DNA of 56,162 nucleotides, counting the filler, from Sluysia triapertura (taxonomy: Eukaryota): the NCBI GenBank assembly GCA_046118255.1. It is 4 parts of 4 records of this genome, joined end to end, with 100 filler letters (N's around TTAATTAATTAA, not from the genome) between each part and the next. Parts side by side here need not be neighbours in the genome. Positions count along the whole stretch, not along the records: positions 44,659 to 56,162 come from JBJNIA010184001.1; 3 more parts are not named here. One strand, written 5' to 3'. The notes under the pieces are model-generated. The model was not told the origin of the DNA. It saw only the letters and a list, made by a program, of their open reading frames with translations, and ran no database searches. The position numbers and the translations under genes were made by a program. The stretch's first letter is position 1; every line of letters starts with the position of its first letter. Positions 2,356-55,536 of this stretch are shown piece by piece.

Positions 2356-2427
2356 GGGCTGATAGCTCAGTGGTAGAGCATTCGAACTGCGCAGCGAAGG
2401 TCCCGGGTTCGATCCCCGGTCAGTTCA
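2356..2427 (+). ncRNA. tRNA-like element (probably tRNA-Cys derived) with a non-canonical anticodon arm; possible SINE or element head
   Basis: Acceptor stem GGGCTGA/TCAGTTC, D arm GCTC-AGTGGTA-GAGC (A box), T arm CCGGG-TTCGATC-CCCGG (B box), followed by TTTT. The anticodon region TTCGAACTGCGCAGCGAA does not form a 5-bp stem with a 7-nt loop. Confidence 0.8.
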
Positions 2428-4443
2428 TTTTATGAAGTCTAACACATATCGAATACCCTTCCGATGTTGAATTAATTGATTTATAATATGTTTGAGGACA
2501 AACATAATTGAATAGAAAAATAGAAAAGGCTCTGAATTAAACTGAAGCATCATAAAATATAAATAAAAACCTAACGTAAAGAAATAAATGTAAACCAGCA
2601 TAACTTTCCTAGGTATAAAAAATAGTTTGTCGAGAGTAGTGTTACAATGTCTACAATTATAGTTTAACTGAAATTTGATTTTTATCAATAGATAATATTT
2701 CATATATGTATCATAATTTTTGAAACACACTAAAAATTATATTTTTATTTTCATTGGAAAGGTTTAAAAGGTTATAATTTTGCCTGTGTTTGTAAAATTA
2801 GTTTATACCTAATTTCGTGAGTTAGCTTTTTTAAATCACACAGTACTACTTTTTATTGTAATCTAATTGACTGGCTTCTACTGATTAAATTATTATCTGG
2901 TACTTTTTGAAACTTGATATAAAGTGAAATTGCAATTTTTTACTGTCGACTTTAACTTTTTCATGTCTAAATTACTTTTGATAATAAAAGTTAATATTAC
3001 TTTTTAAAATAATGGTGCATTTTAAATTATAAGAAAATGTTACACTAAATATTAACATGAACTTATAATTTGTTTTTCTTCTGTTATTTTTTATCAATTT
3101 ATGTATTACAATTTGATAAATTATAAATTCATAAAAACCAAAATAAAAACCATGTTAATTATAATTTGCCGATCAAACACACGTGACCTAAATTTTATAT
3201 TAATATGTGTAAGCGATTCATTTACATTAATTAATTTGAAAATTAAAATAAATATTTAAATCAAAATAGTTTGTAAATGATATTTTTAAAATTACGAAAA
3301 AAACTGTGATCTTTTTTATTTAAATAAATTAAACACAAATGTAAACCAAACCACAAAGTTCAGTTTATAAAACGTACAAAATAATTTATAAAATAATTTA
3401 TAAACATCTTAATAGTTTCATTGCATTGTAAAAAGTAAATAAAGAAATAAATAATAAATCACATAAATATTTAAAATACTTACTCGAACATGTGAATATA
3501 TCTCAAACGAAAATAGAATTATAAACCCTATGAAAGAAAAATTGATGAAAGTCAGTCTTATAATTCTATGTATCTAGAAGGTTACCAAACAGATACCAAA
3601 GAGGATTTCTCCAAGATATATAACTCGAAGAGAACATTCCAATGTCTCATCAGAAATCTCTTGATATGATGATATACAACCAATGAAATAAAAAAATAAA
3701 TATAATTACCAATTAACATCAAAAATAAAGCAAATATAAATGAACCTCACTAAAATTATGAATAATTATAACATTCTGATGTATTTTAATAATTATAAAA
3801 AAATAGATACATCATGGAAGAATATGCCGTGGATATAACTCAAAAGAAGCTATATTTATGTGATTGGAAATGGTAAAGGTAATGATTATAATTTAAATTT
3901 TGAAAAAATGTATCATGAATAATATATAAATATAATGTAACAAATAAATTATTAATAATTGTTCCAGAATCACACAATACAATCATGGAAAACTAGGAGG
4001 CCAACTGTCAGATGTAACAATAAAATTTTCCAAACAGAAAGAATCAGATTGATAGAATTGAATGTTTAGATAAAACTATTATTATGTGTAATCAACAGAA
4101 AATTAAATATAATGTAGAACAAATTACCAACAATATATGTGATTGTTCAGAAGATTTAATAATTTAAATGGATACTTTAAAGCAATTCCCGAAATTAAAA
4201 ATTATTAAAAATTAAATTGTGTACTCCAAAAGAAATAATCAAAAGCAAATATTTGTAAAAAAACAAATTTAAAACATTATAATTTTGAATTCAAACAAAT
4301 ATTTAATAAAATAAATAATTTTTAAATACATTAATCAGGAACTTATAACTTTATTAAACTTAAAATAGGAATGAAATCTTTCAAAAATACGCTCAAAAGA
4401 AAATAAAAGAAAAATAAGGAAAAATGCAGCTTAACACATTTAA

Positions 4444-12002: not shown

Positions 12003-12080
12003 GAATAAAAAATGAATGAATATGGTGAATTCACCAACGTACCTAGTCTTTCCGGTTAGGATTAGCCGTTGGGTTTCTAA
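12003..12080. repeat. dispersed structured repeat, copy 1 (copy 2 at ~14673)
   Basis: AATAT.GTGA.TTCACCAAC...AGCCGTTGG shared with 14673-14750. Confidence 0.7.
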
Positions 12081-14672: not shown

Positions 14673-14750
14673 GAATAAAGCAAATGAAAATATCGTGAGT
14701 TCACCAACCTACTGGACTTACCAGCGAGGGCCAGCCGTTGGATTTTAACG
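14673..14750. repeat. dispersed structured repeat, copy 2
   Basis: Homologous to 12003-12080, same orientation. Confidence 0.7.
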
Positions 14751-17700
14751 TGAAGAAAAGATGCTTTAATAAAGTCTCAAAACTAGAAATCTGGAAGTAA
14801 TTTAATACTATTTTAATTTTTCCTATTAACTTAAAAATGATTTTGCATGAATCCTATAATAAGGATTCTTTAATTTTTAATTAAGAATTATCTTTAAATT
14901 ATATAAGTCAAGTCGTTTACTTCAGGAAAGTTTATTATACAAAATGTAATAATAAAAATACAAATTTTGCACAAATTACCAACGTAATTTTTTAATATCG
15001 ATATAAATTTTAAAAAAGGATTTTAATCTAAGATCATAAATATTAGATTAGTAAATTTTCCTGGATTATACACTGATATTAAATAATATCAACCTTAATA
15101 AAAAATAATCTAACGTTGACAGATAAAAAATCGTCTTCTCTAAAAAATGTGAACTAAATCTTCTTAAATTTCCAAAAAATGATTTGCCAAAATTTATTCA
15201 CCGAAGTTTAAGTTATTCATTTAAAATTTTATTGTTACCAAAACCGATTTACCAAAAATTTAAAATGTTGAGACTTCAATTTAAAATTTTTATTGTTCTC
15301 TTTTTTTGAAAATTGCGGTTCCTTATATAGTTTTTTAACTGTCAACCTTGACATAGTTTAAAATTTAGAAAAGTAAAACAAAATTTTAAAATATTAATTA
15401 AAAATGAAATATTACTTTAAAATTAAAATATAACTTACTATAAATTAATTAAATTTCATAAATATCTATCCAATTAATCAAAATTTAAAAAGGACAAAAT
15501 TTCAATAATTATAAAATCACTCATAAATTGATCATTGATTCAAATACATCAANNNNNNNNNNNNNNNNNNNNNNNNNNNNNNNNNNNNNNNNNNNNNNNN
15601 NNNNNNNNNNNNNNNNNNNNNNNNNNNNNNNNNNNNNNNNNNNNNNNNNNNNNNNNNNNNNNNNNNNNNNNNNNNNNNNNNNNNNNNNNAATAAGATTTT
15701 ATTACTAAATATTCATATTTAACGTTGCTCCTATTCGGAGAAAGCAGAAGAAATAAATCATAAAACTACCTTTCAGAGACAATCAATATTATTTATTTCA
15801 ATATATGCGATCTTGTTTTAAAGTTGTTTTATTTTCATTAAACATTCATAGCTAGATATTCCTTTAATAAGTTGTTATTAAGTTATTAAATGGTAACAAT
15901 TTTTTATTAAAATTCTACAAATTTAATATATTCATTAATTATACAAGTGTGATGCTTTTGCAAAGAATATTCTAAAGTAAATAAAACATAATTCCAAATA
16001 AGAACGTTAAGAATGTGTTTAATTTTAGAATACTATTGAAATGTGCAAGTATGTAATGCTAGGGTTTACGACGTATCCGTAGGCTTTATAAAAAAATTTA
16101 AAAGTGATGGTCTACGTTACCCTTACTTTTCTTTCTTAGTTTAATTTCTATAACTCATTCCTCATGTCTCTTAAATCCTCTTATAAATACTTTATAAATT
16201 TACTTTATTCTTAGATAATTAACACATTATGAGCGGGGCGGGTATTAGTACCCGTTTTATGTACTGTCACTTAAGAATACCTGCTCCTTTTATAGCTGAA
16301 CTTAGAAAACAAATTACAGCTCTTTTACATTAAGGATTATAGACTATAACAATCTAGATGAATTTTTATAATTTTTACTTCAATTTAATTATTATACGAC
16401 AGTTTAAATGTTTAATATTTATAATTACCTTTTAATTACAACTCGTTTCTTTTAATTCAATTACTTTCAATTATCATTAGGTAATTTTTTGCAATCTTTT
16501 CTTTTCAAAATGAATATACAAATTATATTTTCAATAGTAATATATCCAAAATTATAATAAAACAATAGATTTTCACTAGAAATATTTTTTCTAGAATAGT
16601 TTTTAAAGATTTTAAACAATATGTTTTATCTAGCTAAAACTTTATAATAAATTAGTGATTTTTAGTGTATTTTATGTCTCCGTAACAGAGACAGATTCTA
16701 ATACAAATTGCAAAGCCAATAATTTCTTCAATCAATATTTTTCAAATGTGGAAAATGCTAGTAAAATTAATGTGGTGGCCAACCCAATATTTTAAATTTT
16801 TATTTCAATAACACACAATAAAATCACTAGTCAAAATATTTTGTAACTCCTAATACTCCTAAACATAAAATTACATAACATCAAATTCACATTCAATATC
16901 GAAAATCATCAAAGATTTACTTTAAAACTTAATTCATAACAGTAAAAACTTAATTCAACACATTTCACATAAAATCACATTCCATGACATTTCAACAAGT
17001 CTAACATCTAAACTTTTCCTTATTTTATTTTCTCTACTTCCACTAAACCTTGTTCTAATCTTTTCAAAACATTCCTATTTTATAACCTAATAATATTAAA
17101 ATTACAGTTACTATCAGATTAATAATAGACATTTAAAAAATTCATTTAAAACATTTTACTCACTGCTCCATAAACAGCATAACAATAATCACATCTGTTA
17201 ACATCTTACAACTACCTCGTAGAATCAATCAAAACCGTTGATATATTTCATTTCAACTAAAATTAGTCTCCTTTCAAAATGTCAACAGCAAATATACTAT
17301 TCAAAACCATTCATGCACGTTAGATTTTACAAAACATTTTATTCATGTATATTTAAACTTAAGAATTTTAAATATGTCAAGAAAAAAGTTTCAATAACAG
17401 AAAGATCATGTTTATTATACTGAAAAGAATTTATGTTTTTACTTTATTGTATTATTATTTTTTAAAAAAGAAGTTAACTATCTCATCATTATCATATAAC
17501 TATTATTATTGTAGTGACCATTTTTATTGTCATTTTATTTACAGTCATTGTTATTGCTTTCCTTACTATTAAATTTGGCTACCTACCACTGCAATCTGTA
17601 ATCATTTGACGGATTTATTAATTTAATTTTTCTATATGTGATTTGGTGTAATTGTATTGATGACGTGTGCTGGTCACATTGTTTAGTTGTTACATACTGT

Positions 17701-27462: not shown

Positions 27463-28339
27463 ATTTAAATGCTTCTCTGTTTAAATTTAATAAAATTTAA
27501 TACTATCATGTATATTAATTGTGAAAAATTAATTTTACCACTTTTTTAACGGTTGAATTTTCGATGAATAGGAAAATTATAATTCTAATAAAAATGTGCA
27601 TCTAATGAAAGCGTAATTTTTACTTAAAGTATGTTCTTGCACTTCGTTTAAATAAATATTCTTGCATAAAATAGCGAAATGGATTTGAATCATTTTTAAA
27701 TAAACAAAATATACATTTTCGTAAGCTGTAATTTAAGAATATACTTAAAGTATAATATACTTTCAGTAGGAATTGTACTTTACCTGAGCTTAAATTTTAT
27801 TTTTTGTATTCGTACACAACTTCAAAAAATTTACCCTTAGGGATTTTACCTTTAATTAAAAAAATTACCCTTAAATTTTTTCTAAATTACCTATTAAATA
27901 AATTAAAAATAAAAATAACTTCAATAAATTCAAATAAAATTAATTTGTACAAATGTTCATTATTGAAATATTGTAATTGTAATAATTATTTAGATTTCTC
28001 TTTATTACTTTCATAAGTGATGTTTTAACCTTAAATTTTACCCTCATGTTACAAAAATTATTAAACTAACTTTATTAGATTTGTAATATTTTACTAGAGC
28101 GCAATCACTCGATTTAGGACCGTCATTTAGCTTTAAAAATAATTTTGGTAAGTTTTACTTTTTATAAATTCTATCAATCTTATCGCTTCATGATTAATCA
28201 CACTATAATGGAGGTTAATTCAGAAATTGCTTCTGATCGTAGAGATAGAAGCACAAATTTTAGTAGTTAAATCAAAACAAATTAACATTTAATCCACTAC
28301 GGTATACTTATTAATAAAATAAAATTCAATTTGTAATTG

Positions 28340-29030
28340 CTATGCTAGTATTTTCCTATACTCAAGCAAATTATCTGAAGAGTCGATCCGCCTAATATAT
28401 ACGTTTTACACCAAGATTGGAGACGTATTATTAGGATTTACTATAATTTCTTATATTTAGTACTTACCTAACACTTTAACTTACAGAAAATTAATTAATT
28501 AAATTGATTTGAATTTTATTTATATCTTACGCAAACCTTTTTATAGTGTTGCTTATGAAAACTGTTTTTATGAATTTAGAATTTGCGCAACCCTTTTTAT
28601 GGTGTTGCTTTCAAAAAAAAGATTTTAGATTAATAACAAAAACTTGACAAAAATTCCTTAAAATGTATTATAATACAAAGTTTAGAACTTACAAAAAATA
28701 ACTTATAATAATAATAAAATTTTATTATAATTGGTAGTTCTTTATTTTAAATGAATGTTTCGCAACCCTTATTAAGGTGTTGCATTAAAATGAGTTTGAG
28801 TGGATTTTAGGTTTCCTTTCTTAAAGTGAAACCGTATAAACCTATAACAATAATAAGTACTTGTTTATCATGGAAGTGAAAATTTTTTATTGAATTTGCT
28901 TCTGAAACTTTATTGAGTTAAATCTGAAAACTTTATTGTCCTTTATTATTAAAAAACTCACCTATTTATACTTGATTTTAATTCCAAAATGTCTTCCTAT
29001 TATTTAAATTAGTTTATTCAAACAAATTTT
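28340..29030 (-). repeat. conserved non-coding module with three bulged hairpins (28531-28552, 28587-28608, 28762-28783); homolog at 54490-55160
   Basis: Minus-strand GCAAC-A-CC-WTAAWAA-GG-GTTGC x3 (one copy degenerate); collinear shared blocks with the 54.5-55.2 kb region. Confidence 0.75.
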
Positions 29031-29402: not shown

Positions 29403-30900
29403 CTAAATCGACTGGTCATCATCGTCTAATAGGTAGTCATAGCGGTACAGCACGTGGGTTTTCTTGTCGTCGTGGAACTTCTGGATCGACAATGGCCGTA
29501 ATTTTTCTGTAGTAACGGTCCGGAGACTCGAATTAGATGGTACTGGTATTGTTGATGTCGTTTGATGATTCAATTTTGATGGCGTTGTTACTGGCGGTGT
29601 GTTGGCTGATGGATTAGTAGTAATAGACTTTGTTAAAGAAGAGATCGAAAAAGAGGAAGAAGTAAAATAAGGATGAGTGACCTTTATTTTTTTAAGAGGA
29701 GGAGAAATACATCGTTGATGACTAGTAGGTTGTGGTTTACAAAGAGCGGAGGGTTGTTTTTCAACACGATATAAATTGTACGTCGCGTTCCCTTATATAA
29801 TCAAGTAAGGTCACCAATTTCGTGGCCATTTGTTTACAAGTCATTACTGGACAAATAGGAAATATTAATCGCAGCGTTTGACGCGCTTTAGGAAAAAGAT
29901 CGTCATCAGAGAATGGAATTAAATTGTGGTTGGATAGGTTAATAATTCCCCTTAGTAGTCCGAAAGGAATACTCAAGGAATCGATAAGAAATTTTGGATT
30001 CAAAGCTACTAGAATCTTATTACATAGAATCCCTATCAACTGGGTACGGACGTCATTGATATCTTTGGCCAACCTAAGGTCGGCGTCCGTAACAGTCTGA
30101 ATATTTCTACGGAAATTCTGGATCCGACAACGGGGTTTTACCCGAGCCTCGGTACGAAACTGGCGGCTGTACGGAGTACAGGTCACACAGATCAATTGTG
30201 GTCTGTTGAGGCAATCCACAGCATATTGAAATGCTACAAACATGAGTCGGTCCTCATCATATGTGGACAAAGGCGGGACGTGTGTATATGATGAACCGCT
30301 CTTCCATCGACTCATTTTGTCTAGATCCCCGCGAAAGGAAGGAAAGAAGGAGAAAAGAGTGGTTTTAGAGGCAAAACAAAAAGAAGGGAAATGTACGTTG
30401 GAAATTCCATCGCCTCAACCGTAACATTACAATCCTTAGACAACTCCGAAAGATGAAGAGTTGAGAAGCCCTCTAAACGCATTACTAAAGGGGTATTTTT
30501 TATTGTCAACGTTATTTTAACTGTGCCTCGCGTGGATGCTGTATACAGGGTGTTGAAATTCTCCGGTGCGCTGGCCATATCGTGTAGTGACACACTTGGT
30601 GCTTTTGCCGACAAAGGAAAGATATGGGTTGCCACATTGTCCGTTATTTCAGATTTCAATTTACAATCTGTGGCGAAAGAATTGGGAAAGAATTGGGAAA
30701 GAATTGGGAAAGAAAATAGGAGAGGAAAGTTCAGCACAGAATTTATCTAAGGAATTATAGAACGATTTAATTTGATGAATTGTCTTAACTTTGACTAGAG
30801 ATTGATGTGGGATTGGTGTTGGAGTTCTAATAAAGAGAATTACAAGTATATAAAAAATGCATAAAAATATAACAAAACACACAAGTAATTATTATTTCAT
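29403..30900 (-). pseudogene. frameshifted ~490-codon intronless ORF chain; N-terminal hydrophobic anchor or signal, Cys-containing middle, S/T/P-rich C-terminus; family unknown
   Basis: Four overlapping same-strand frames: 30882-30661, 30737-30321, ~30414-29761, ~29791-29403. Visibly GC-richer than the flanks. Confidence 0.55.
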
Positions 30901-30938: not shown

Positions 30939-31421
30939 TTAGGAGATAGTTAATGTTGTTTGAGAAAAGGATTTTTTTCTTAACCACTCATTTTTCTTAA
31001 AAAACTTTTTAAGTTGGCGTCGTCTATAATTACGCCTTTGTGATTTTGTCAATCCTCTATGGTAGTCAGGTTTCGGAACCTCAAACCCATTATATAGAAC
31101 GTTAGCTTCAAAAAAATTGCTTGGTTGATAAATATCAACAGTAGCATTCTCCTGGAGCCCATGGTAAGCTGCAACAGGAGATGAGTTAGGTTTAATATAT
31201 TTGACAGAAAATTCGTAAGACGTACGAAATGATTTTTTAAAGAAAATATCACATTCTGTGATCGTGGCGCGGCACAAAGGACAAGAGGGTAAAGGAGTGG
31301 GAGCAGAATCAAACAAAAAGTATAGACATCGAAAATGAAAGCGATGTCTACAAGGTATTGCAATAGAGTAATATCTATGTATTGATCTTTGACATATGGA
31401 GCATAAAGTGAAACGTAATTG
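30939..31421 (-). CDS. RING-H2 zinc-finger protein with basic C-terminal tail (open frame lacks an ATG before the RING)
   Basis: Extending the listed ORF upstream gives CSIC-x13-CRHRFHFRC-x14-CPLC, a complete C3H2C3 RING-H2; tail SQRRNYRRRQLKKFFKK. Confidence 0.75.
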   Translation of the reverse strand, partial: QLRFTLCSICQRSIHRYYSIAIPCRHRFHFRCLYFLFDSAPTPLPSCPLCRATITECDIFFKKSFRTSYEFSVKYIKPNSSPVAAYHGLQENATVDIYQPSNFFEANVLYNGFEVPKPDYHRGLTKSQRRNYRRRQLKKFFKKNEWLRKKSFSQTTLTIS

Positions 31422-31436
31422 TTAGACTTCGTAAAA

Positions 31437-31496
31437 TGGACTGACCGGGGATCGAACCCGGGACCATCGTCTGCGCAGTCGATATGCTCTACCACT
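31437..31496 (-). ncRNA. second tRNA-like element, 5'-truncated by the contig end
   Basis: Reverse complement AGTGGTAGAGCATATCGACTGCGCAGACGATGGTCCCGGGTTCGATCCCCGGTCAGTCCA-TTTT, near-identical to 2356-2427 outside the anticodon arm. Confidence 0.8.
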
Positions 31497-31596
31497 NNNN
31501 NNNNNNNNNNNNNNNNNNNNNNNNNNNNNNNNNNNNNNNNTTAATTAATTAANNNNNNNNNNNNNNNNNNNNNNNNNNNNNNNNNNNNNNNNNNNN
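31497..31596. other. artificial contig spacer
   Basis: N44-TTAATTAATTAA-N44. Confidence 0.9.
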
Positions 31597-33102: not shown

Positions 33103-42829
<9,727 letters not shown>

Positions 42830-43109
42830 GGTTTTGTGTGCAAGTGCTTTTATAAATGTGTGTGCGTGTCTCTGTGTGTGTGTGTGTGTGTCTCAAAAAT
42901 CATTCAATACTGTTGAGATATATTTGTCTAACAGAAAGTAAAGATGAATGTCGCATTTGTGTCAGCTGGATGTGTGAGTGTGCCTATTTGTGTTTACTCA
43001 AATATTTATGAGAATATTCAATAATGTGAGACACTGGAATTTATTGGTTTTCATTTCATAATTTAATAAGGGCTCTTTGATTTAAAACTCGATAAATTAA
43101 ATTCACTTA

Positions 43110-45189: not shown

Positions 45190-47087
45190 CCAAAAACTAT
45201 TTAAATCATAACTAACACTTTTGCGTTTTCGGCTACTAAGCCATTGACCAGAAGTATCTGGTTCTTTTTCAGAACTAAAAGGTTGACCTTCTTCGATTAC
45301 AAAACGAAAATCTTTCAAATAATCACCACCGTTACTTGTTGATCCCAATATCCATTGTAAAATCATCCAAAATCTTTCAATTTCTGTCAAAATTAATGCA
45401 TTAAATTTTAAAGGCTTTTCGGAGTTTTCCAAATTATCATTTTCATCGTCCAAAGAAATTATATTTTTATTCAAGGTTTCTCCTTTTCTTTCTAAAACAG
45501 CATCTATATCATGCTAAATAAGTAATTATAAATTTTATATTTTATAAATATTCGCAGTTTGAAAAACATTTAATGAAAAAATAAGCTCACTTATCATAAA
45601 ATAAAATGTGTTACCTGAGTAATATTAACTTAATATTTTATTTTAATGTGACTTATTGTCCCTGTCCAATTTATCGAAGGTAATAATTATCGTAACATAA
45701 TTTAACTTTGTTGCGTCATTTACAGACAACATTAGGTATTATCAAATATCGCAATAGATTAAAATATACATGTCCTTCAAAACAATAAATCTAGATAACG
45801 TAACTATAAACGCGATGATTTACATTAAAGATGATCACATATAAATACACATAATATAGTATTTGCCATACGATCAGACTACCCAGAGAGAGATCATATG
45901 TTCTAAGTCAGTCCATATTATGACTTCTAACATTTGGTAAACCCACATATCGAATAATCCTTCTAATGTGAAATTAATGAATTAAATCTTGTTTGGGCTC
46001 AATAATAATTGAAATGGGAAAATGTCTTCAGATATAAGTTTGAAAATTGAAATTAAAAATGTATAAGTGAGAAAAATGCTAGTAAATTATAAAAATGGGC
46101 TGAATTTTTGTTGGAAATATATGAATATAAATATTTATTTCGATAGAGAAATAGCAGATATTAAATTCTAATAATGATAATAAAAATTGTAATAAGTACA
46201 ATAATCAATAATAATGGTAATATAATAATAAAAATAACAATAATACTGCAAATTTATCATTTATATTGCATGTTTTTATTTTAATACTGCCTTTACTCAG
46301 AATTTTATCATTTATTATATTTTATGATCTTCTAAGTGCTTAATAAACTATGTCGATTTTAATTTTCAATCTTCAACTTTATTTTGATTTACCCCTGGTA
46401 GTGACAGCTAAATACGTCTTTTGTATTAAAGATAGAAGTACAAATCTGAATCGTCAATCTATAATTAGAACTCTCATTAAAAAATAAAGACGAATTGACA
46501 TTTATTACGAAATAACAAAAATAATAAACTACAATGAAAACGCCACACGGAATTAGTTTTTTAATCTAATATTTTAATTTCATATTATTTATTTAATTTT
46601 AAATAGTGTACTAAAGCATTTATCAAATACTAAAACATTTACCGATTTCATGGTTCAAATAATCAAAAGATGTCTTCGGCAAATCGAAGTTAGAATAAAT
46701 CAAAATCAGATGCTTTTCCAACATACATCCTCTCCAAATCAATCAAATGTTTCTTCAGATATTATTTCGTTATTAAACTTATTATGGTGAATCACATCCT
46801 CATTTAGTGATTTATCTAACTCTTTTATTTGGCCAATTACCCATTCCATAATAATTTCCCTATTCGTTAATTTCATAATTAATTTTCTTTTTAACCAATT
46901 TCTATGTATTTTCTTAACCTGTCTTACTTTTTCTATAATTTAGTTCTGTATATAACACAGATTTATATTGTTTTTACAATACTAACAAAATAGTTAAAAA
47001 ATAATTATAATTAATAATAATAATAAATAATAATAATTTTAATAATCTATTATAAATAGAAAATTTTAATTAAAAAAACTTATTATT

Positions 47088-50100: not shown

Positions 50101-52836
50101 AAAGACTATTAAATAATCTAGGAATGCGCTAATTCTTCAATAAAATCAGATGGCATGAGTTGATCCACCATACACATGAGTCTCGATACATGCCTACTGT
50201 GCGTTTTAAATTGTGGATTGTAGCCGAACAAGTTAAATTAATGCATTTTGCTTTAGTACTAAGTATAAGAAAACACCAACAAAATAAAATTATTTTTGAG
50301 AAAATAAAATCTATTTATGACACTACGTCCATGTATAAAATTTTCATAAAAGTGCTGAAAACACTTATTAAATACAAATTTATTTATTTGAAAGTTAATA
50401 AGAATTTGGTTGCTAAAGTAAATAGTAAATTAGTAAACAAATATTTAAATTAAAGTGCGATTTACAGATCCTTGGTTGTAACAAGTAATTTAGACAAAAA
50501 CAAAACTACAATAAACATTTTGCATTAAATAAACATAGATATACATATAGGATCCATCAAATCAAGTTCCTAAAATTATATATCTGACACTTAGTTTAAT
50601 TTAATGGCAATGATAACGTCATACATCAGAAATACGAAAATCTAAAGGTTTTCTTACTTGAATATCATCAAAAGTATTCACTTTTACAGTTTAACTTAGT
50701 ATTAACATTAATAAAATTCTATAAGTGGCCCACTATTTTGCGTAAGTGTAGAAGTTATTTAAGAAAAACCACTCGCAAAAAGGGCATTAAATTTTCGAAA
50801 ATAGATATAATTAATTTCAAAAATAAATATTAATGGAAAGATACGTTTTCAAATGATAATTTTGTCATACTTCTTTAACTGAAGAAAATGTTCAAAGCCC
50901 AATCGTCAATGTTCTTATAACTCTCAGCACTTTGTCAGGTTCTAGGCTTTTCCAGACTCAGAATAATAAAATAATAATGTTAGAAATTTTTTCTAAAAGA
51001 AAACTATTTACGTTAAGTTTTTACATATACATTGAAATGATTCCATGCGTAACTACCTGTTTATAAATAATCAGTTCATTTTCAGCAATTTTAGAGCATT
51101 TTATTAACAACCTTTTGGATATTAATAATTTAGCAAAGTCAGTTTTATAAATACTTTTATAAATAATTTTACCTCACAATATAATATCTTCAATTAATGA
51201 TTGTTCACATAATATTGTAATAATACTTTAACATTCTTTCGTTCAATTAATCTTCTCTACGAAATTTATCGGGCCAAAATTCTATTCTACAATGTTCTAT
51301 TAATTTTTCTTTTATAGTTAATTCTTGTTGTTTAGTCAATTTATCTACTATATTATTCTCTATAAATAACAAATTATAAATAGCAACCCAACCACAAAAA
51401 TAAAAATACTAATCAAGAGAAATTTCTACGCACTAGTTACAATAAAGGATTGAATAAAGTAATACTGCTTGAAAAATCTAACCGCAAAATTCGCAATCAA
51501 AATCAAAATTTTTGTTTGTTCATTTAAAGCGAAATCTAAATGCATTAAAAATTACTTTCCAGTTATTAAATACTTCCATCCTTATTATACAAGGCAATTT
51601 TTAAATACATAACTAACTTTAGCATTATTCAAAAATTCAACGGTAAAACCAGAATCTAAAAGTAGCGTAAATAATTCTGCGGAATCCCAAGAATTTTCAA
51701 CAACATCACTATATTCAAAATATAGTTTTGAGGAAAGAACTTGAATTAAATTATTCATTTTTTTAACCTAATTAAATAATTATATATAAATACAATTACC
51801 ATTTCTGTCAGATTGTTAAAGTGTTTTTCTTTCTTTTCTTAAGTAAACATATATATATAAATGGATAAAAATACCAGCTTCAATTAATTGGAATTTTAGT
51901 TCTGTTAATTGTTCCTGGCTTATTCTAACTGAAGCAGAATCGCGACAAATATCTTCAATATTATGTGCTTCGTCTAACACAACTACTGCATTTGTTATAC
52001 TCAAAGGCAACTAAATTTATATATTGATATGAAAAAAATACTAACTGCTTTTCTAATAGAAGGATCGATAACATAATTATAAGGACATATAATTAATTCT
52101 GAATCATTAATCCAATCACGAGCTTGAAAGTGTGGACAGATTTTGTTCTAAACTTATTTACAAAATTTATAAAATGAACTTTTATGAAGTCATTTCTTTT
52201 GGTTTCAAATGTCCATGGCTGGGAGGGAATTGGATTATTTTTCTTAGATACATTGTTTCTAAAAATACATAAATTTTCCTGTCAATTATAAATTATTATT
52301 TGAAACATACATCACAGAGATCCTTGCACATTTGATCAATATTATTTGAGTTAAGCGCCTTAGTATTTACGCAACTGTAACGACGACTCCCAATCACCAC
52401 CATTCTAATTAAAAAATAAAAAACAAATTATTACTTCGTATTATGATATGGGCTTCGCCCTAATTCACGAACAACTTGAGAAACCTGTTTGTGAGTTCTA
52501 GTTGCATAAATAATTCGTATAGTCTTCATTCTAGAATTTATTATTTCTACTAAATAAATTACTTCGTGTTTTTATTAGCATAGGTTGAAATTTCATTATA
52601 ATTTCTAAGCCATTCCAAAGTTGTACACAATATTACCATGGTTTTCCCAGTACCAGTTGGTGATTCCAAAAGACAATTGTTTCTAGAATTAAGCCCATTA
52701 ACTATCTAATTCTAGCTAATTAATATAAAATCTGTACTCTATTCATCATTGACAACTGTGAAGGATATGGCTTATATGGAAATTTTATTATCATGTCATC
52801 GACAGGTACTTCATTATATTGCTGGGATGAAGACAT
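45190..52836 (-). CDS. BRIP1: FANCJ/BRIP1 Fe-S DNA helicase, N-terminal half (many mini-introns; 6.1-kb intron 45514-51617)
   Basis: ATG 52836; FPYKPYPSQLSMMN, LLESPTGTGKT, YATRTHKQ, Fe-S cysteines, CPYNYVIDP, LDEAHNIEDICRDSAS. Exon 45513-45190 (HDIDAVLE...DYLKDFRFVIEE...SFW) continues the Arch region. RTHKQ favours FANCJ over RTEL1. Confidence 0.85.
47090..47139. repeat. (AAT)n microsatellite
   Basis: Perfect run. Confidence 0.95.
47450..47900 (-). mobile_element. possible decayed CR1/L2 reverse transcriptase remnant
   Basis: Minus-strand AIDVFYFVLSKA resembles the RT motif VDVIYLDFSKAFD; otherwise degenerate. Confidence 0.3.
48275..48694 (-). pseudogene. CARM1: CARM1/PRMT4 gene fragment (pseudogene) nested in the FANCJ intron
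   Basis: [28 protein letters not shown] matches CARM1 [29 protein letters not shown]; the next segment YQQYFQCINLSRV...FSQSIHTF...IMA...DFREIDESDLYR...F*TTGSCHA is collinear with CARM1; two in-frame stops. Confidence 0.8.
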
Positions 52837-53369: not shown

Positions 53370-53480
53370 CATAATAATAATAATATATTAATTTATATTG
53401 TGCTCATATTTACTACGTAAGTACTCAAGATTCATAATGATTCATAATATTTCTGAAACAGAAAGAACTTTGCCTTTTTC
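53370..53480 (-). mobile_element. short 3' LINE fragment, same family as 38555-38800
   Basis: Shared ~100 bp including the AAT tail. Confidence 0.6.
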
Positions 53481-54365: not shown

Positions 54366-54489
54366 GTCTAATTACAAAAAACTATTTCATTTTTATTTTT
54401 ATTATTTATATTTTATTATTTTATTATTTATTATCTAAATAATATTATTATTATAAATCAAAATCTTTCTGTTTATAAAAATTACAAAT

Positions 54490-55160
54490 TGTTTAAATAA
54501 AGCAAATTGTTTAAATAAATCAATAAACAATATGGAAGACAGGTAAAAAAATAATATAAATAACCACAAAAAATTCAGAAAAACACACACAGAACGACGA
54601 CAGCAGTGACAACAACGACAACAACAGAGGAAAAGAAAACTTGAAAAATCAATTAACAGTATTCCATGAAAAAGTACTTATTTATTAAATAAGTTTTACG
54701 TTCTAATTGTAAAGAATAGAACTAAAATATTACTTAAAATCTTTATATATATGTCAGACCGTAAAAAGGCTGACTTAAAATCTTAATAAAATTATTTCAA
54801 TCTAAGCAAATAGGCTTAAGATTTAAATTGAATATTTTTATTATTCTAAATATTGTCATTGAATATTTTTTGATTTAGTAATAAAGTTTTGATTAGTTAT
54901 TTTAAGTATTTGTTTAAAATCTTTATATTTTGGCCAGACCGTAAAAAGGCTGGTTTAACTGAGTAAGTTAAGTTTTTTCTTTTTACTTATTTATCGTTCT
55001 ATAATTTATAAGGAAATAGTTGGTCTAAGTCACTTATATTAATCCTTTTAAATCTATTTTTTTATAAATCTAATTGGGACGTCATCTTTTGATATAAATC
55101 GTGCCTAATTAGTCGGATGGACTCCAGATCCATTTTGCATATAGGGAAATATCTTGCAAT
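54490..55160 (+). repeat. conserved non-coding module with two bulged hairpins (54753-54774, 54933-54954); diverged homolog of 28340-29030
   Basis: GTCAG-A-CC-GTAAAAA-GG-CTGAC and GCCAG-A-CC-GTAAAAA-GG-CTGGT, each preceded by TAAAATCTTTATAT. Confidence 0.75.
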
Positions 55161-55375
55161 AATTATTGTGTTATTACTTGTAAATTGTTTAGTATTATTA
55201 TTAACAATTTCAGACAAAAAGTAATAATTATTATGTGTATTATTATTAGTTTCTACTTGTAAATTTTTGATTATTATTACTAAATTTATTATTTATATAC
55301 TTGGAATTTAATAAATTTTCGTCATATGTAAAAATAGTATAAATAGACAATTTGATTTTCAACCCACACAATATT

Positions 55376-55536
55376 ACACAGAATTTCGGATTTTACAGAA
55401 TTTGACAGAGTATTAACAGTATTATTAGTATTTGTCATAGTATTTGGCACAGTATTTGATACAGAATTTGATGCAGTATTAAACAGTAGTTAACACATAA
55501 TTTGGCACAGTACTTCAAACAAATTTTGGACAGTAC
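55376..55536 (+). repeat. degenerate ~11-12 bp minisatellite (ACAGWATTTGNN)
   Basis: Repeated CAGTATTTG/CAGAATTTG units. Confidence 0.75.

Follow-up and report, generated by a model that had tools for sequence, protein, structure and literature searches.

The window, i.e., the whole 56,162-nucleotide stretch of DNA that was analysed, was AT-rich (17–38% GC per kb) and eukaryotic, with intron-split genes for a ubiquitin hydrolase, a DEAD_2 helicase (approximately FANCJ/RTEL1-like by our own reading), an RRM protein and a nucleotidyltransferase. Introns of 30–37 nt were numerous in the host genes, and we infer that the source is a compact animal genome. Two intron size classes lay side by side, 30–37 nt in the helicase gene (52833–50400, minus strand) and 60–80 nt in the ubiquitin hydrolase gene (39300–42900, plus strand), with 10 introns read in all over both genes. 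Two copies of a noncoding module of ~690 nt were found in intergenic gaps of this window, one downstream of a small gene cluster, termed the cargo (copy A), and one free of it (copy B) (Table 1). A coding role was considered and rejected, as no ATG was common to the copies and there was no frame of 80 aa.

Table 1. Positions of the module copies, their parts and the cargo along the window
Feature	Positions	Strand	Remarks
Module, copy B	54486..55160	+	no cargo; 24% GC
First block	54486..54519	+	near-palindromic word (start: TGTTT) duplicated in tandem, 18 nt
H0, in first block	54486..54519	+	candidate hairpin with G.U pairs, or pair of DNA sites
GGAAGACA	54534..54541	+	unchanged between the copies; possible pairing of its GGAA with TTCC at 54662
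TATAAATA	54555..54562	+	candidate TATA box, weak evidence
TTCCATGA, AAGTACTTATT, hairpin H0.5	54662..54694	+	ACTTAT/ATAAGT; U.G wobble in copy A
Hairpin H1	54700..54722	+	both sides changed in 3 of 6 pairs relative to copy A
Bulged-A hairpin H2a	54753..54774	+	5 bp, A, CC/GG, loop GUAAAAA
AATAAA	54785..54790	+	11 nt past H2a (copy A: 16 nt), then T-rich stretch
Bulged-A hairpin H2b	54933..54954	+	
Long hairpin H3	55070..55112	+	with internal loop; both copies retain CTAAT/ATTAG and ACG/CGT
CGGAT.GACTC	55114..55124	+	best conserved run of letters
Terminal hairpin H4	55135..55159	+	AGGRAA loop; homology stops at GCAAT
Direct repeat of first block, AAATTGTTTA	55182..55191	+	10 nt; candidate target duplication or terminal repeat
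Module, copy A	about 29030..28337	-	same motifs as copy B
Copy A bulged-A hairpins	28833-28810 (H1), 28783-28762, 28608-28587, 28552-28531	-	
Copy A H3	28434-28392	-	
Copy A H4	28369-28337	-	
Copy A repeat of first block	28283-28275	-	9 nt
Ser/Thr/Pro-rich frame (cargo)	29403..29792	-	no family; about 370 nt from its end to copy A
Broken gene (cargo)	29761..30746	-	homologue of the unnamed 365-aa protein P0002, split over frames
RING-finger frame (cargo)	30939..31421	-	zf-RING_2, E = 6e-8; no in-frame ATG before the RING
tRNA-like repeat fragment	31420..31496	-	directly before the RING frame; cut by the assembly gap 31497-31596

The comparison rests on these two copies, whose identity was just 57% over 638 columns and whose lengths (682 vs 698 nt) agreed to within about 2%. 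Eight motifs were common to both copies and collinear, with similar spacings between them (27/28, 128/122, 35/36 and 26/30 nt). Four of the words, namely GGAAGACA, AAGTACTTATT, CGGAT.GACTC and TATAGG.AAATA, occurred exactly twice each in the 56 kb when both strands were counted, once per copy. The original prediction had described collinear shared blocks, and all of them were recovered in both copies, except that exact AAATTGTTTRAATAAA was present in copy B only (twice, as the 18-nt tandem duplication), where copy A reads AATTTGTTTGAATAAA. The local alignment score of the copies was 60, compared with maxima of 45 among 200 dinucleotide shuffles and 49 among 270 genomic windows; it was not decisive alone because an AT-rich flank, used as the query, reached up to 66 against unrelated windows. 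The case for homology therefore rests on the global score, the motif order and the pairing. The global score (−60) exceeded every one of the 200 shuffles (maximum −207) and 270 genomic controls (maximum −175), so that the proposed alignment against shuffled controls favoured homology, and AT composition as the sole explanation was ruled out by this score together with the GC-containing motifs occurring in order. Among the segments (300 shuffles each), the 5′ block, the middle and the core scored above every shuffle, the variable 5′ stretch was at background (20 vs a shuffle mean of 20.5), and the long linker was not above it (43 vs a shuffle maximum of 44). The flanks of the two copies resembled genomic controls (upstream, 54 vs a control maximum of 66; downstream, 50 vs 52), and a similarity between them was rejected as apparent only. 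Homology of copies A and B was thus confirmed.

Pairing was also conserved. Among 59 hand-matched pair positions, 43 were unchanged, 10 had double-sided changes, 4 had one-sided changes and 2 were broken, i.e., pairing was retained at 14 of the 16 changed positions, 10 of them via double changes, although these counts overstate the significance because the helices were picked with both sequences in view. Both broken pairs were flanking positions added around GGAA:TTCC. One bulged-A hairpin with the loop NUAAWAA was reiterated in each copy, two or three times (2 vs 3), and the resulting five hairpins (5 bp, bulged A, CC/GG and NUAAWAA) were paired in 97% of 35 cells, a level reached by 5 of 500 shuffles, with slid controls at 17–43%. 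RNAalifold, applied to a sequence-only alignment of the middle part, returned 17 pairs, 5 with double changes and none broken, and the alignment fold of this part had a z-score of −5.4 (0 of 200 column shuffles). A generic bulged-A scan of the window yielded 5 sites, all of them in the modules and on the module strand, vs 0.67 in a shuffled window. Besides its 5 training copies, a covariance model of the hairpin found H1 of copy A (E = 0.004) and a lone match at 14838–14879 (E = 0.005) that lacked the other module motifs. Since the generic scan and the covariance model both picked copy A H1, it is a hairpin of the same type, to which copy B H1 was assigned by eye. The 3′ core was less clear: automatic folding of its alignment gave no significant result (z = −1.35, 16 of 200 shuffles), its folds as single sequences were weak (z = −0.5 and −1.6), and CGGAT.GACTC may, judged by eye, form a pseudoknot with the GTC of H3. 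The hairpins of both copies were intact despite saturated linkers, and a natural hairpin that covaries over five copies lends itself to a direct test of protein binding. Copy B carried an additional hairpin at 54798–54823, with an unpaired A on its 3′ side and a six-base A-rich loop, that was unmatched in copy A.

A promoter-like start at TATAAATA had also been proposed and is plausible from the sequence. The word alone is weak, with 43 matches in the window and occurrences in 109 of 1899 AT-rich 120-nt windows, which corresponds to a chance of ~0.06 per copy (0.057 per window). It was present in both copies, at a distance from GGAAGACA of 21 nt in B and 27 nt in A, a drift of 6 nt. All double-sided pair changes were located 3′ of TATAAATA, and the motifs kept letter for letter were located 5′ of it, as were the tandem near-palindromic word and the possible GGAA:TTCC pairing, which had no double-sided changes. 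The view that the TATA word lies inside the RNA, suggested by H0 and GGAA:TTCC, was weakened accordingly, because neither had a double-sided change and H0 follows from the tandem near-palindrome; the first block of copy B could instead be a DNA site. A GT..AG stretch of 36 nt in B, which spans TATAAATA, and one of 38 nt in A would fit the 30–37-nt introns of the host, with intron scores of 10.9 and 9.1, respectively, against a null 90th percentile of 11.1 under a profile built on 10 introns. The order TATA, AATAAA and GT/T-rich was observed in both copies (chance of 0.057 and 0.085 per window). Each copy contained five internal runs of 5 or more T, which excludes a single Pol III transcript.

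The region upstream of copy B contained neither a 100-aa ORF nor any remnant of a cargo protein, in agreement with the claim that no RING or ORF lies there. The nearest gene upstream was the DEAD_2 helicase gene, on the opposite strand and starting near 52833, so that the two are arranged head-to-head and copy B does not represent the 3′ UTR of a host gene. The view of the module as an independent unit that can occur without the cargo was likewise borne out, copy B being cargo-free and the flanks not being shared.

The cargo beside copy A was a broken orphan cluster. Two of its frames matched P0002 (E = 6e-15 and 1e-6), and because both match one protein they represent one broken gene. Its C-terminal part was DEDDh exonuclease-like, with a feature score of 0.93 to RNase_T clusters and, for a three-sequence cargo profile, a match to the PolC exonuclease domain (E = 5e-4). 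In both the window protein and P0002, the acidic residues expected at the catalytic positions seem, by eye, to have been replaced, and the DEDDh-like protein looks catalytically inactive; the predicted structures were poor (pLDDT of 33 and 39). Searching 1.84 billion representatives returned only 2 relatives, a search of a word-indexed protein database with P0002 returned only itself, and neither the viral nor the metagenome contigs contained a relative, the cargo profile also giving no match in the metagenome contigs. The GC content of the cargo (38%) equalled that of host exons (39%), so composition gives no sign of foreign origin. An 11-nt unit, three in tandem, was present at 30700–30670 (minus strand), where the homology to P0002 shifts frame, and a Cys-rich exon-like frame at 363–295 (minus strand) weakly matched the start of the cargo RING (E = 0.006). 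The tRNA-like fragment at 31496–31420 was 92% identical to 2369–2444, 3′ flank included, within a tRNA-like sequence at 2356–2560 (plus strand) that has an abnormal anticodon loop and to which ARAGORN gives no amino acid; the sequence after the tRNA-like unit recurred at 45944–46023 (plus strand, 75%). These sequences are probably a tRNA-derived SINE family.

The resemblance to LTRs was assessed at the module boundaries. Animal LTRs are described as sharing TGTTRNR...YNYAACA termini together with a weak TATA, an AATAAA and a stretch rich in GT (PMC3601003). The homology edges coincided with TG at 54490/54508 and 29024 and with CA at 55158 and 28338, which is weak evidence because the same letters belong to the stems of H0 and H4. 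A terminal inverted repeat of the type TGTTRNR/YNYAACA was not formed (5′ TGTTT; homologous 3′ end TTGCA/TAGCA). None of the 12 TG..CA pairs tested at copy B had a 4–6 bp target duplication, and the only one among 6 pairs at copy A (AATT, 4 bp) lay at an end without homology to that of B. No polypurine tract preceded copy A, the preceding 36 nt consisting of A/T with many T, and no TGG-type primer site followed the candidate ends of either copy. No reverse transcriptase or integrase was found among the 20 of 22 window ORFs of at least 100 aa that were scanned. Given no inverted repeat, no target duplication at B, no polypurine tract and no primer site, the module was not filed as an LTR; of the earlier term ‘LTR-like’, the resemblance stands, and the tests for target duplication, terminal inverted repeat, polypurine tract and primer site failed. 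The first block recurred past H4 in both copies, 22 nt on in B (10 nt) and 55 nt on in A (9 nt), at null rates of 0.027 and 0.055, respectively, among 292 control pairs with zones chosen after seeing the repeats. This recurrence is a candidate target duplication or terminal repeat, or chance. If the direct repeats are target duplications, each copy inserted independently at a similar site, and since they bracket copy A without its cargo, the module would, if they are real, be uncoupled from the cargo.

An nhmmer search of the window, with a profile made from the two copies, detected no third copy (next best E = 0.69), and the metagenome contigs gave 0 matches to the core pattern. The Rfam covariance models, run over the whole window at E up to 5, returned 4 matches, none of them in copy A or B, and the literature searched did not describe the module. 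The module is real and uncatalogued in the libraries searched.

Our preferred reading, to which we give a probability of about 0.45, is that the module is an LTR-like terminal unit of an uncatalogued retroelement, solo at copy B. The order TG, TATA, AATAAA, T-rich, CA, as in animal LTRs (PMC3601003), points to it, as do the location of copy A on the same strand as, and after, the RING and DEDD-fold genes and the state of the orphan cargo, broken and bordered by an assembly gap in which the remainder could be hidden. The conserved pairing, the location of all double-sided changes 3′ of TATAAATA and the direct repeats bracketing both copies also count for it. Against it are the failed boundary tests, the lack of a reverse transcriptase or integrase among the ORFs scanned and of a hammerhead core, a cargo GC content equal to that of host exons, the non-significant alignment fold of the 3′ core and, if real, the bracketing of A to the exclusion of its cargo. 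The intact hairpins in B count against it as well, being unexpected for a decaying solo LTR without target duplication. The module would work as an LTR or pseudo-LTR, i.e., as the terminal control unit of a mobile, retroelement-like family. Its short 5′ part (the tandem TTTRAATAA word, GGAAGACA and TATAAATA) would serve as the promoter, from which transcription would start, and the remaining ~570 nt would act as single-stranded RNA. The array of bulged-A hairpins may bind one element-encoded protein several times, for packaging or RNP assembly as with MS2 operators or totivirus binding sites, and the 3′ structure (H3, CGGAU.GACUC and H4) may set or protect an end or start copying. Copy A would still be attached to the broken accessory genes of the element, the cargo and module thus belonging together, and copy B would be a solo or 5′-truncated copy of a long-diverged sister family. 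If the module is a retroelement terminus, a packaging-type hairpin array has been kept across families whose other letters are saturated, and a candidate reader protein is named.

The closest comparison for this retroelement reading is with the LTRs of Metaviridae (Ty3/Gypsy), including bdelloid Juno/Vesta, with a DEDDy ORF3, and Burro. The module is like them in its length of a few hundred bases, in its TG/CA edges and TATA, AATAAA, T-rich order, and in occurring with and without internal genes, and the DEDD-fold and RING genes upstream of copy A recall their accessory genes. It differs from them in that no terminal inverted repeat, target duplication, polypurine tract, primer site or gag/pol was found. 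Bdelloid LTR elements and Terminons carry accessory genes for DEDDy exonucleases (PMC5408684), and RING motifs are present in planarian Burro (PMC6431247); the bdelloid exonucleases have intact catalytic residues (PMC5408684), whereas the protein of the cargo resembles DEDDh enzymes and looks inactive. The conserved features of animal LTRs given in the cited part of PMC3601003 do not include a covarying hairpin array. Penelope-like pseudo-LTRs and Terminons share with the module a terminal repeat thought to hold the promoter and AT-rich targets (PMC5408684, PMC11167929), and Terminons also have DEDD accessory ORFs (PMC5408684). No hammerhead core was found on either strand of either copy, nor any Rfam hit: the single exact CTGANGA, on the opposite strand of A, had no GAAA within 45 nt, and the single relaxed match, in B, lay in an unstructured A-rich run and was absent from A. 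The module is thus not a typical Penelope pseudo-LTR (PMC11167929), and no reverse transcriptase/GIY-YIG frame in tandem arrangement was present among the ORFs scanned.

The main rival, possible though on balance unlikely, is that the copies are paralogous host Pol II lncRNA genes of ~570–600 nt, starting near 54585, whose product would be a protein scaffold or decoy through the bulged-A hairpins, with the cargo an unrelated neighbour and with promoter and scaffold arranged as in the preferred reading. Hairpins kept intact beside saturated linkers in both copies, a length held within about 2%, the intergenic position of both copies, the failure of all LTR boundary tests and the intact hairpins of B without a classical target duplication are all in its favour. 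The number of hairpins differs between the copies (2 vs 3), and it is variable in roX too (PMC4719309). On the other hand, no AATAAA was present within 50 nt of the module 3′ end, Rfam gave no match, and it would have to be a coincidence that copy A follows, in register, a tRNA-derived repeat and an orphan cluster of broken genes. The analogy is with the Drosophila paralogues roX1/roX2, where overall identity is near-random and a short repeated motif is kept in stem-loops; roX2 is 0.6 kb long, and roX function scales with the stem-loop number (PMC4719309). In the module, by contrast, what is repeated is a hairpin with a bulged A and an A-rich loop. The word GTTNTACG, which we take to be the roX box, occurred once in B and in A only with an inserted base, and the resemblance is one of design only. 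An lncRNA of this kind would also recall animal telomerase RNA, which is noncoding, made by Pol II, several hundred bases long and equipped with hairpins towards its 3′ end. No template (~1.5 repeats) was shared between the copies for the seven repeat units tested, a set that an unusual repeat would escape, and the longest match in B was 4–6 nt; no box H/ACA common to the copies was seen by eye, ANANNA and ACA around H4 being present in A only (PMC8480181). If the module is a host lncRNA, a roX-like scaffold has been found from sequence alone in a compact genome, and either this or the retroelement reading implies a structured RNA family without an Rfam model.

Considerably less probable is a free-standing, promoter-bearing structured RNA, i.e., a non-autonomous RNA satellite or decoy copied on its own around an animal-like genome, as the 9- and 10-nt direct repeats bracketing each copy might suggest, with hairpins like the MS2 operator for its own binding protein, the catalytically dead DEDDh protein encoded beside A, and without LTR chemistry or ribozyme. 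The MS2 operator (TR) and the binding site of the totivirus L-A/M are likewise short hairpins with a single unpaired A read by a protein. The MS2 TR has a geometry of 5 bp, A and 2 bp. The module differs from both in its 7-nt loop NUAAWAA, in its other stem letters and in being chromosomal in a eukaryote. In MS2 and totiviruses, several degenerate hairpin copies cooperate in packaging (PMC4569859, 10.1101/2021.08.10.455819). The likeness is one of mechanism and shape, not of kinship.

A viral origin of the module is comparably doubtful. On this view, two integrations, from different strains or segments, would each have left the 3′ noncoding region of an RNA virus or satellite, with the hairpins as encapsidation signals and the dead exonuclease as a nucleocapsid-like protein. 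The arrangement of ORFs, AT-rich spacer and 3′ stem-loops with a protruding A does recall yeast M satellites (PMC4569859), and the feature search gave leads, below or at threshold, to arenavirus nucleoprotein for the exonuclease frame (0.89) and to viral RING clusters for the RING (0.88–0.90). However, the viral contigs contained no protein relative, and the searches of them revealed no sequence kinship of module or cargo to a dsRNA virus or its proteins. The 16-letter core word had 22 matches there, with unrelated flanks, and the hairpin words had 0 and 4, the 4 lacking five other motifs and lying in DNA of 38–46% GC; thus, none of the 26 motif matches had the other motifs in the flanks examined, the hairpin model having also been run on 18 of the 26 loci. 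An RNA virus would have no need of a TATA-like word or of the motifs upstream, and neither a polymerase nor a capsid gene was found in the window.

Very unlikely is an action of the hairpins in single-stranded DNA, as rolling-circle or Helitron-like ends or as protein-bound inverted repeats. The middle hairpins did fold about equally on either strand (z = −5.4 vs −4.0 and −6.9 vs −8.9), and H3 of copy A was more stable on the opposite strand. Against this, the 5′ part favoured the module strand (z = −2.5 vs +1.6), as did the wobbles, all 4 one-sided changes being to or from G.U on that strand. The consensus of Helitron-like 3′ ends is CTRR before T. The module 3′ end lacks it, and no Rep or helicase-nuclease family was present among the ORFs scanned. 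Finally, the chance alignment of AT-rich DNA is close to negligible: an identity of 57%, background scores in 2 of the 5 segments and the local scores of AT-rich flanks speak for it, but the global score far above all controls, the GC-containing motifs limited to the two copies and in order, and the restriction of bulged-A sites to the modules do not fit it.

Several minor repeats were also observed. A 115-nt repeat of 84% identity was located at 38592–38704 and 53371–53479, the latter between the helicase start and copy B, and a degenerate 12-nt tandem array of 7 copies lay at 55427–55536, 270 nt downstream of copy B. A GC-richer repeat of 75 nt (76% identity), apparently intronic, was present at 12003–12076 and 14673–14745.
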